A stretch of 64,000 nt of DNA from Escherichia coli (GTDB taxonomy: Bacteria > Pseudomonadota > Gammaproteobacteria > Enterobacterales > Enterobacteriaceae). Position 1 is the stretch's first letter, and each line of letters opens with the position of its first letter. The stretch is from assembly GCF_024502345.1 (NCBI RefSeq), contig NZ_JALDNN010000001.1, one strand, 5' to 3'. Shown here piece after piece: positions 52,890 to 54,158 of this stretch. The position numbers and the translations under genes are program-made. A model generated the notes under the pieces. That model was not told the origin of the DNA. It did no database searches and worked only from the letters and a program-made list of their open reading frames with translations.

Positions 52890-53666
52890 ATGTCCGAAAC
52901 AAAAAACGAACTTGAAGACCTGCTGGAAAAAGCAGCAACCGAACCGGCGCACCGCCCGGCCTTTTTCCGTACTCTACTGGAATCCACCGTCTGGGTGCCA
53001 GGTACGGCGGCGCAGGGCGAGGCTGTGGTTGAAGATAGCGCGCTTGATTTACAGCACTGGGAAAAAGAAGACGGCACCAGCGTTATTCCTTTTTTCACCT
53101 CGTTAGAAGCACTTCAACAGGCGGTTGAAGACGAACAGGCATTTGTCGTAATGCCCGTTCGCACATTGTTTGAGATGACCCTTGGCGAAACGCTCTTCCT
53201 TAATGCCAAACTGCCGACCAGTAAAGAATTTATGCCGCGTGAAATCAGTTTGTTGATTGGTGAAGAGGGAAATCCGCTGAGCAGCCAGGAAATCCTGGAA
53301 GGCGGTGAATCGCTGATATTATCGGAAGTCGCAGAGCCGCCAGCACAAATGATTGATTCACTCACCACCTTATTTAAAACTATTAAGCCGGTGAAGCGTG
53401 CTTTTATATGTTCAATTAAAGAGAACGAAGAGGCACAGCCTAATTTACTTATTGGCATTGAAGCCGATGGTGATGTCGAAGAAATTATTCAGGCGGCGGG
53501 AAGTGTAGCGACCGATACATTACCTGGCGATGAACCAATCGATATTTGTCAGGTGAAAAAAGGGGAAAAAGGAATTAGCCACTTTATTACCGAACATATT
53601 GCGCCATTCTATGAACGTCGTTGGGGTGGTTTTTTGCGTGACTTTAAACAGAACCGGATAATCTAA
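52890..53666 (+). CDS. sseB: SseB family protein (serine sensitivity enhancing B)
   Basis: 258 aa from ATG 52890 (MSETKNELEDLL); alternative GTG 52881 would add 3 aa. Confidence 0.85.
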   Translation: MSETKNELEDLLEKAATEPAHRPAFFRTLLESTVWVPGTAAQGEAVVEDSALDLQHWEKEDGTSVIPFFTSLEALQQAVEDEQAFVVMPVRTLFEMTLGETLFLNAKLPTSKEFMPREISLLIGEEGNPLSSQEILEGGESLILSEVAEPPAQMIDSLTTLFKTIKPVKRAFICSIKENEEAQPNLLIGIEADGDVEEIIQAAGSVATDTLPGDEPIDICQVKKGEKGISHFITEHIAPFYERRWGGFLRDFKQNRII

Positions 53667-53697
53667 AATATGCCGCCCCAAAGGGCGGCATTCGGGC

Positions 53698-53823
53698 TTA
53701 CCTGCTGTTCTGAAGGTTGTTAACCACCAGTAAATTGTTGCCGGAGAGACTCAGGTTATTATTTACCTCGGTTAACAGCGCACCAGAAACAATAAGTACG
53801 ATACAAAAGCACCGTATCTTCAT
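53698..53823 (-). CDS. Candidate small hydrophobic protein (41 aa), TimP-like type I toxin
   Basis: ATG at 53823 (minus) to TAA 53700-53698; translation MKIRCFCIVLIVSGALLTEVNNNLSLSGNNLLVVNNLQNSR; basic N-terminus then hydrophobic stretch; weak GGA SD; in-frame upstream ATG at 53835 also possible. Confidence 0.4.
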   Translation of the reverse strand: MKIRCFCIVLIVSGALLTEVNNNLSLSGNNLLVVNNLQNSR

Positions 53824-53886
53824 TGTGCGGTCCATGCGAAGACCGCATCACGACAGCACCACTGGCGATATTGCCGCGATAGCAAG

Positions 53887-53903
53887 CGCTGAGACGCGCT
53901 TGC
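53887..53903. repeat. 17-nt direct repeat copy A (cgctgagacgcgcttgc) within ryfA leader, embedded in palindrome agcaagcgc-tgagac-gcgcttgct
   Basis: Exact 17-mer recurs at 54047-54063. Confidence 0.85.
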
Positions 53904-54011
53904 TCTAACGGTCGCGGAACATCCTTTCCTTAAGCCAGCGCCCGCTTGCGAGACGGCGGAAAGGGCCGCAGTGGATAATACACTAACAGAACAATAATAA
54001 CTCTCTTTTGC

Positions 54012-54040
54012 TTGACAAAAAGAGAGTTACTGGCGAGTAT
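54012..54040 (+). promoter_or_regulatory. Candidate sigma70 promoter for a plus-strand small RNA
   Basis: Perfect -35 TTGACA (54012-54017), 17-nt spacer, weak -10 GAGTAT (54035-54040); sits in an 11-bp perfect palindrome aactctctttt / aaaagagagtt (53999-54029). Confidence 0.3.
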
Positions 54041-54046
54041 TGTCTC

Positions 54047-54063
54047 CGCTGAGACGCGCTTGC
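54047..54063. repeat. 17-nt direct repeat copy B (cgctgagacgcgcttgc)
   Basis: Exact match to 53887-53903. Confidence 0.85.
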
Positions 54064-54114
54064 ATTACTACGGTAATACAACCTGCTGGAAAGGCCGCGA
54101 ACCAGACCAGCAAT

Positions 54115-54142
54115 AAAAAACCGCCAAATTCGGCGGTTTTTT
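54115..54142. terminator. Bidirectional rho-independent terminator (sseA 3' end / plus-strand sRNA)
   Basis: aaaaaa-ccgcc-aaattc-ggcgg-tttttt: A-run and T-run flank the stem so it terminates in either direction. Confidence 0.7.
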
Positions 54143-54158
54143 ATTGCCTGTAAAATAC

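Follow-up and report, generated by a model that had tools for sequence, protein, structure and literature searches.

Identification of the timP gene

The window, a stretch of 64,000 nucleotides (nt) of Escherichia coli DNA (NCBI RefSeq assembly GCF_024502345.1, contig NZ_JALDNN010000001.1; positions below refer to it unless another sequence is named), carries between sseA and sseB a short minus-strand open reading frame (ORF). This ORF extends from 53823 to 53698 (ATG to TAA, 126 nt, 41 codons plus the TAA stop codon) and its reverse-complement translation is MKIRCFCIVLIVSGALLTEVNNNLSLSGNNLLVVNNLQNSR. It is the E. coli copy of timP, a small membrane-toxin gene located on the RyfA RNA. An earlier interpretation made from the letters of the window alone (the sequence-only reading) had proposed a TimP-like small type I toxin on RyfA at this site; its coordinates and translation were exact, and the identification is borne out by Rfam, NCBIfam, RefSeq and the conservation of homologues.

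The product matches the NCBIfam profile NF040796 ('toxic_TimP') with 77.7 bits (cutoff 45; E = 5.7e-22), and its residues 1–39 align to profile positions 1–39 of 40. The Rfam ryfA family (RF00126) matches 53969..53665 on the minus strand with 314.2 bits (gathering threshold 80) over model positions 1–296 of 296, and the timP ORF lies wholly inside this full-length match, flanked by sseA and sseB as the sequence-only reading had placed it. A 601-bp region around the ORF is 100% identical in E. coli FDAARGOS_943 and was matched in 5,425 of 5,426 complete E. coli genomes. The RefSeq timP coding sequence (CDS) of the 100%-identical genome, WP_001491247.1, maps back to 53823..53698, and the gene order sseA - timP - sseB among its RefSeq features agrees with the ORFs of the window. 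Each of the 25 records listed from the 5,425 matching genomes has timP in its RefSeq annotation.

Since NF040796, RF00126 and the RefSeq timP CDS all match, this is a known gene with an existing annotation and no new candidate; its publication dates from 2020 (PMC7667032). The description of the ORF as unannotated was correct for the size-filtered ORF track available to the sequence-only reading and incorrect for RefSeq/PGAP, in which the CDS is timP. The discovery value is accordingly low, the gene, its antitoxin and its translational switch having been published between 2020 and 2026 and the CDS being present in RefSeq E. coli genomes. The recovery of a genuine toxin gene of fewer than 50 codons from raw sequence serves as a positive control, and the case illustrates how annotation tracks with a size cutoff overlook known small proteins.

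Two basic residues (K2 and R4) precede a hydrophobic stretch in the product, as had been claimed; the mean Kyte-Doolittle value is 2.61 for residues 5–18 versus -0.47 for residues 19–41. This arrangement suggests a Sec-signal-like N-terminal segment.

Conservation of the reading frame

The product was compared in an alignment of 18 ryfA loci, comprising the window, K-12, O157 and 15 others, from the genera Escherichia, Citrobacter, Superficieibacter, Yersinia, Rahnella and Erwinia. The further loci were retrieved by a contig scan with GCGGTCNNNGCANNGACCGCAC, a loose pattern based on stem-loop 4 (SL4) of the RNA. The scan returned at least 120 loci; among the matches listed, 105 were unrelated GC-rich hairpins from other phyla and 15 were usable Enterobacterales loci, with no Salmonella locus among them.

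The length of the ORF is by itself not unusual in the window, where 248 ATG-initiated ORFs reach 41 codons or more (3.9 per kb). The timP ORF is stop-free in 7.5% of its shuffles, and the chance of a stop-free shuffle is 7–20% for each of the 18 sequences taken singly. The ORF goes beyond chance because it is kept in every one of the homologous loci: all 18 possess an ATG-initiated ORF of 38–42 codons starting at +123 to +149, with no in-frame stop codon versus 49 and 29 stops in the other two frames, and their length differences are whole codons. Both the frame and the start, whose conservation among ryfA homologues the sequence-only reading had put forward as the feature to check, are thus kept in 18/18 loci. 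The pooled pN/pS (ratio of nonsynonymous to synonymous change) is 0.54, with 0.33 for the 20 N-terminal columns, which make up the hydrophobic half, and 0.69 for the tail. Conservation in the alignment is highest in the hydrophobic N-terminal segment, and comparison across genera shows purifying selection on the N-terminal half.

The timP transcript and its 5' untranslated region

The timP mRNA, formerly the RyfA small RNA (sRNA), probably extends from 53969 to 53665 on the minus strand (~305 nt), these being the ends of the RF00126 match. Counted from the Rfam 5' end at 53969, the 5' untranslated region (5'UTR) would be 146 nt long and the ORF would occupy +147 to +272, followed by the 3' terminator; in Salmonella, counted from the mapped transcription start site, the timP ORF occupies +145 to +261 (PMC7667032). 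With this 5' end, the ~135-nt leader and ~290-nt transcript of the sequence-only reading become 146 nt and ~305 nt. Its -10 hexamer TATTAT, assigned to 53965–53970, was misplaced by ~10 nt, the reverse complement there being TGCGGC. On the minus strand this hexamer is found at 53980–53975 and again at 53999–53994. The former (53975..53980), which stops 5 nt short of the Rfam 5' end, is the probable timP -10 element, and the K-12 and O157 alleles both retain GTATTAT. A consensus promoter scanner called neither the putative timP promoter nor that of the divergent RNA described below. Its single call was TTGTCA-16-TATTGT at 54018..53991 on the minus strand, which would place the start ~15 nt further upstream than the 5' end of ryfA in Rfam and in K-12; this is the less likely promoter for timP.

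A terminator scan revealed an intrinsic terminator hairpin at 53691–53670 (minus strand; 9 pairs, 7 of them G-C, with a loop of 4), followed by AUUUUAGAUU, with ATTTTAGATT after the stem. The hairpin noticed earlier at 53672–53689 is contained in this stem. Four pairs of the terminator helix show compensatory changes in the 18-locus alignment. The 3' end of timP (Rfam, 53665) meets the stop codon of the convergent sseB (CDS 52890–53666, plus strand), leaving essentially no spacer between the two genes, and the terminator hairpin starts 4 nt past sseB (53664–53669).

The 5'UTR folds, according to the Rfam structure line, into a series of stem-loops (SL). SL1 (53924..53963) carries in its upper part site 1 of a pseudoknot, CGCUGGC (53940..53934), and SL3 (53847..53880) holds the complementary site 3, GCCAGUG (53866..53860). 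Between them lies SL2 (53883..53902), which is the region of the TimR-binding site, GCAAGCGCGUCUCAGCG (+67 to +83, 53887..53903), a 17-nt sequence that is repeated at 54047–54063. SL4 (53827..53846; GCGGUC UUCGCAUG GACCGC) encloses the Shine-Dalgarno-like GGA at 53833..53831, 7 nt upstream of the AUG at 53823. Its 5' flank, GCGGUC (site 4, +124–129, 53841..53846), is complementary to site 2, GACCGU (+57 to +62, 53908..53913), the columns of which are invariant or nearly so in the alignment.

In the 18 sequences the SL1-SL3 pseudoknot helix is 94.1% paired (slid controls, 17–78%), with compensatory changes at three of its seven pairs. The nested Rfam structure is 94.7% paired versus 38–49% in slid controls, with 12 compensatory pairs. 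All seven pairs of SL4 are invariant, which is not independent evidence because the retrieval pattern selects the SL4 stem. In Salmonella, SL2 is the TimR site, SL4 sequesters the Shine-Dalgarno sequence and timP translation requires the pseudoknot (PMC11228461); pairing of site 2 with site 4 frees the Shine-Dalgarno sequence without RNA processing in the structural-switch model of 2026 (PMC13000454).

A five-codon upstream ORF (MFRDR; +48 to +65, its AUG at +48, 53920-53922) is present between SL1 and SL2. A comparable upstream ORF in Salmonella (AUG at +53-55) is dispensable for timP translation (PMC11228461).

A candidate TimR antitoxin

The plus strand at 54047..54142, which the sequence-only reading had missed, is a candidate for the sRNA TimR, ~96 nt long with both ends predicted and divergent from timP. 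It is without an annotated feature in the RefSeq records listed. The 17-nt sequence CGCTGAGACGCGCTTGC occurs twice on the plus strand, at 53887–53903 and at 54047–54063, so that a plus-strand transcript passing through 54047–54063 would be perfectly complementary to timP +67 to +83, in SL2. A putative promoter, with -35 TTGACA (54012–54017), a 17-nt spacer and -10 GAGTAT (54035–54040), was recognized by its sequence at 54012..54040; it falls below the hexamer threshold of the scanner. With these hexamers, TimR would begin with the complementary stretch. A terminator (CCGCC/GGCGG, 54121–54136, with a T-run at 54137–54142) appears as a 3' hairpin in the predicted fold; the same hairpin also serves sseA, which reads into it from the other strand.

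Pairing of the first 30 nt of TimR with the timP 5'UTR was calculated at -43.7 kcal/mol, versus -22.4 +/- 3.0 for shuffled sequences (z = -7.2). For whole TimR the value was -75.7 kcal/mol; as full-length shuffles average -55, only the result for the 5' 30 nt is relied on. A lineage-specific match of 10–17 nt, from +66 to +87 of the UTR to a site 64–97 nt upstream, was found in 13 of the 18 loci, and because the matched sequence differs by lineage the two sites co-vary. In ten loci (Escherichia, Yersinia and Rahnella) a TTGACA-17-nAnnAT promoter ends 5–14 nt before the complementary stretch, and a terminator lies 92–100 nt past that stretch in 10/18. By exact matching, no TimR-like complementarity was present in the loci of Y. 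similis and Y. aleksiciae, which have shorter, divergent 5'UTRs. The Y. similis locus (L072 4361–4467) carries a match to Rfam Ysr224 (134 bits) directly upstream of its shortened ryfA, on the same strand.

No Rfam family matched the TimR region at threshold; with a relaxed E-value, fragments of AgrB, RNAI and IS128 appeared below threshold, the terminator apparently accounting for these hits. The best of these was AgrB, the antitoxin of dinQ (29.8 bits versus 40), a match probably driven by the terminator. The upstream position, the opposite strand, the pairing of the 5' end and the terminator fit the published TimR (PMC7667032). TimR has been detected by Northern blot in uropathogenic (UPEC) and avian pathogenic (APEC) E. 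coli (PMC13188913), and divergent transcripts of ~100 nt were seen by RNA-seq in Shigella (PMC5333039).

Allelic diversity and upstream DNA

Three types of TimR-binding sequence were distinguished, namely GCAAGCGCGUCUCAGCG in the window, GCAGGUGUUUCACAGCG in K-12 and CAGGCACCCCACAGUG in O157, each allele having a TimR with the matching 5' end. Among these alleles, cognate duplexes of site and TimR range from -38 to -44 kcal/mol and non-cognate ones from -25 to -33. Of 5,426 genomes, 2,908 share the timP site of the window and 4,543 its TimR 5' end.

In K-12 (L002 860–1374) the interval between sseA and timP is 326 bp longer than in the window (53970–54158). The additional DNA comprises a second TimR-like module, the promoter palindrome described below and ~20 nt from the beginning of a timP-like 5' end, GGCCCTTTCCGCCGT, followed by unrelated, AT-rich sequence and another terminator. 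In Rfam this stretch matches 'IS128', an sRNA candidate (RF00125), with 261 bits. It has the appearance of a remnant left by tandem duplication of timPR, comparable to Shigella ryfA1/ryfA2. The K-12 timP site pairs at -40.4 kcal/mol with the distal, sseA-side TimR module versus -33.1 with the adjacent one, which is identical to the TimR of the window.

Tentatively, E. coli may contain at least three co-evolved, poorly cross-reacting timP/TimR specificity alleles, K-12-like genomes keeping in addition a second TimR (IS128) from a decayed tandem copy; we regard this as a possibility on the doubtful side of even. If true, the cognate antitoxin of K-12 timP would be the distal module and not the adjacent one, and together with the fast-changing tail of Escherichia TimP this would point to ongoing toxin-antitoxin diversification instead of a static housekeeping locus. 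The observation of allele specificity is only partly new, since a 'variable region' and partner specificity were already noted in Shigella by Fris et al. (PMC5333039).

The region between the divergent timP and TimR promoters contains an inverted repeat, TAACTCTCTTTT / AAAAGAGAGTTA, whose 12-nt arms match perfectly and enclose a loop of 8 nt (53998–54029). The TimR -35 TTGACA lies in this loop. Both K-12 modules carry the repeat and the O157 allele does not; it could be an operator or a relic of duplication.

Proposed mechanism and alternative explanations

The locus is very probably a type I toxin-antitoxin system, the timPR orthologue of E. coli. Transcription of the minus strand from ~53969 to ~53665 would yield the ~305-nt timP mRNA. 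In this RNA, SL4 would lock the Shine-Dalgarno sequence and keep timP translation off; the sequence would be freed only in an active fold of the 5'UTR that needs both the SL1-SL3 pseudoknot and the pairing of site 2 with site 4. The 41-amino-acid (AA) protein would insert into the inner membrane through its basic and hydrophobic, Sec-signal-like N-terminus, and at high level would make this membrane leaky. The 5' end of TimR is expected to pair with SL2, destabilise the active fold and block initiation.

The same mechanism is assigned to the window because all the sequence elements that it needs are present and co-vary; the RNA and the protein are identified, the ORF is conserved, and every RNA element is found with its co-variation. 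Translation from ATG 53823, membrane targeting, toxicity and the operation of the switch are predicted for the window allele by analogy with Salmonella, and repression of timP by TimR through base pairing is predicted from the complementarity and co-variation described above.

Several observations weigh against this assignment. The ends of the timP and TimR transcripts and both promoters are deduced from sequence. Across the six Escherichia sequences pN/pS is ~1.2, so that no purifying selection is seen within the genus, the counts being small. The TimP tail varies within Escherichia through amino-acid replacements only: TimP of the window differs from that of K-12 by four nonsynonymous and no synonymous changes (L24R, N29D, N39S and R41K), all in the C-terminal tail (53698–53760), and E. 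coli TimP is without the LHA-D(R/Q) motif that follows the hydrophobic segment in the 38-AA forms of Salmonella and Citrobacter. In UPEC, delta-ryfA phenotypes are fully complemented by ryfA alleles in which the ORF is disrupted (PMC8205139); no peptide was detected in Shigella (PMC5333039); and a study of APEC, in which deletion of timR had minimal effects, states that the toxic peptide of E. coli 'remains to be determined' (PMC13188913). A search of the literature found no ribosome-profiling report from E. coli specific to timP translation. The translation and toxicity of native E. coli TimP are unproven, and the known RyfA phenotypes of E. coli and Shigella are ORF-independent.

Most work on the locus in E. 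coli and Shigella has concerned it as the sRNA RyfA. The alternative that survives best is that the E. coli transcript is mainly or additionally the regulatory RNA RyfA, a dual-function RNA which, through base pairing or binding of ProQ, would affect the expression of stress, fimbrial and motility functions and of ompC, and whose ORF would be dispensable or weakly selected in the genus. It is favoured by the restoration of the UPEC delta-ryfA phenotypes, which was obtained with three ORF-disrupting alleles (PMC8205139), by the attenuation of APEC delta-ryfA alongside the small effect of delta-timR (PMC13188913), by the elimination of ompC mRNA on overproduction of Shigella RyfA1, again with no peptide detected (PMC5333039), and by the pN/pS of ~1.2 within Escherichia. 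Binding of ProQ to RyfA is also reported for APEC (PMC10664665). On the other side, the ORF, its start and its frame are kept in all 18 homologues (stops 0 versus 49 and 29), purifying selection on the N-terminal half is seen when genera are compared, the conserved elements of the 5'UTR are those that control translation of the ORF (PMC11228461, PMC13000454), and toxin mRNAs typically have a dedicated antisense RNA that co-varies with their 5'UTR. We give this explanation appreciably less than an even chance. It is compatible with the toxin reading, and a dual-function RNA, consistent with the assignment to timPR, is plausible.

A start at the upstream ATG is very improbable. In the program-made ORF list the frame extends four codons 5' of ATG 53823 to an in-frame ATG at 53835 (MDRT-MKIR...), which makes this the longest ATG-initiated ORF, and the resulting 45-AA form (MDRTMKIRC...) is that used in the UPEC study, where the ORF of CFT073 is described at +135 to +270 (PMC8205139). 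Rahnella, Erwinia and Y. similis have AAG in place of the upstream ATG, while the downstream one does not vary in the alignment, and for this reason the 41-codon start is favoured. The upstream ATG (53835..53833) moreover falls in the loop and 3' arm of SL4, overlaps the GGA of the downstream ATG and has no Shine-Dalgarno sequence of its own. The NF040796 alignment starts at residue 5 of the 45-AA form, which is the downstream Met, and RefSeq uses the 41-codon start. In Salmonella, mutation of the homologous downstream ATG abolished both the protein and toxicity (PMC7667032). The 45-AA start was rejected on its unconserved ATG, its position in SL4 and the start given by the profile and RefSeq.

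A chance open frame within a structured noncoding RNA, to which the density of ORFs of this length or longer in the window (3.9 per kb) and the 7.5% of stop-free shuffles might point, has a negligible probability and is effectively refuted by the 18-locus conservation, the divergent homologues being open in the timP frame only, with an invariant start, whole-codon length differences and an N-terminus under purifying selection, and the protein having been shown in Salmonella (PMC7667032).

Comparison with known systems

A close known counterpart of the locus is timPR of Salmonella enterica (Andresen et al. 2020; Eleftheraki & Holmqvist 2024; Eleftheraki et al. 2026), which belongs to the same Rfam and NCBIfam families. 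The 38-AA Salmonella TimP is translated from the homologous ATG and resides in the inner membrane, and its overexpression leads to leakage and loss of viability; TimR blocks timP translation by pairing with the 5'UTR, as was demonstrated in Salmonella with compensatory mutations and in vitro translation (PMC7667032). Placed on the E. coli chromosome, Salmonella timP kills, with no colony formation (PMC13000454). The ORF starts at nearly the same place in the two RNAs (+147 in the window, +145 in Salmonella), and the proteins share an N-terminal hydrophobic segment of the form MKIR-x-x-CIVL-x-VSG. Both loci have a divergent, non-overlapping antisense RNA whose 5' end pairs with SL2 over ~17–18 nt, and the Shine-Dalgarno-sequestering SL4, the SL1-SL3 pseudoknot and the pairing of sites 2 and 4 are present in the window as in Salmonella. 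Among the differences, TimP of the window has 41 AA versus 38 and, unlike its Salmonella counterpart, an Asn-rich tail (NNN...NN...NN). The TimR-binding sequence is allele-specific, and the interval between sseA and timP is without an STM2534-like gene, unlike in Salmonella (PMC7667032).

In Shigella dysenteriae, RyfA1/RyfA2 and RyfB1/RyfB2 (Fris et al. 2017) occupy the same chromosomal position, RyfA being likewise an RNA of ~305 nt (PMC5333039). As in the window, a divergent partner of ~100 nt (RyfB) shows 16–17 nt of complementarity, which overlaps the 'variable region' (PMC5333039), and this is the region that distinguishes the window, K-12 and O157 alleles. The Shigella pair was described as an sRNA regulating an sRNA, with an effect on ompC and the peptide undetected (PMC5333039). 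Shigella possesses two tandem complete copies, and the window one pair.

Among the enterobacterial type I systems, TisB/IstR-1, ShoB/OhsC, ZorO/OrzO and DinQ/AgrB have divergent, trans-like antitoxins. Like timPR, these four combine a small hydrophobic inner-membrane toxin with a long, structured 5'UTR, and their antitoxin sRNA is encoded upstream on the opposite strand and pairs through a short repeat instead of a full overlap. The TisB, ShoB, ZorO and DinQ systems have no sequence homology to timPR. The mRNAs of the TisB type need 5' processing to become translatable, whereas timP relies on a purely structural switch (PMC11228461, PMC13000454).

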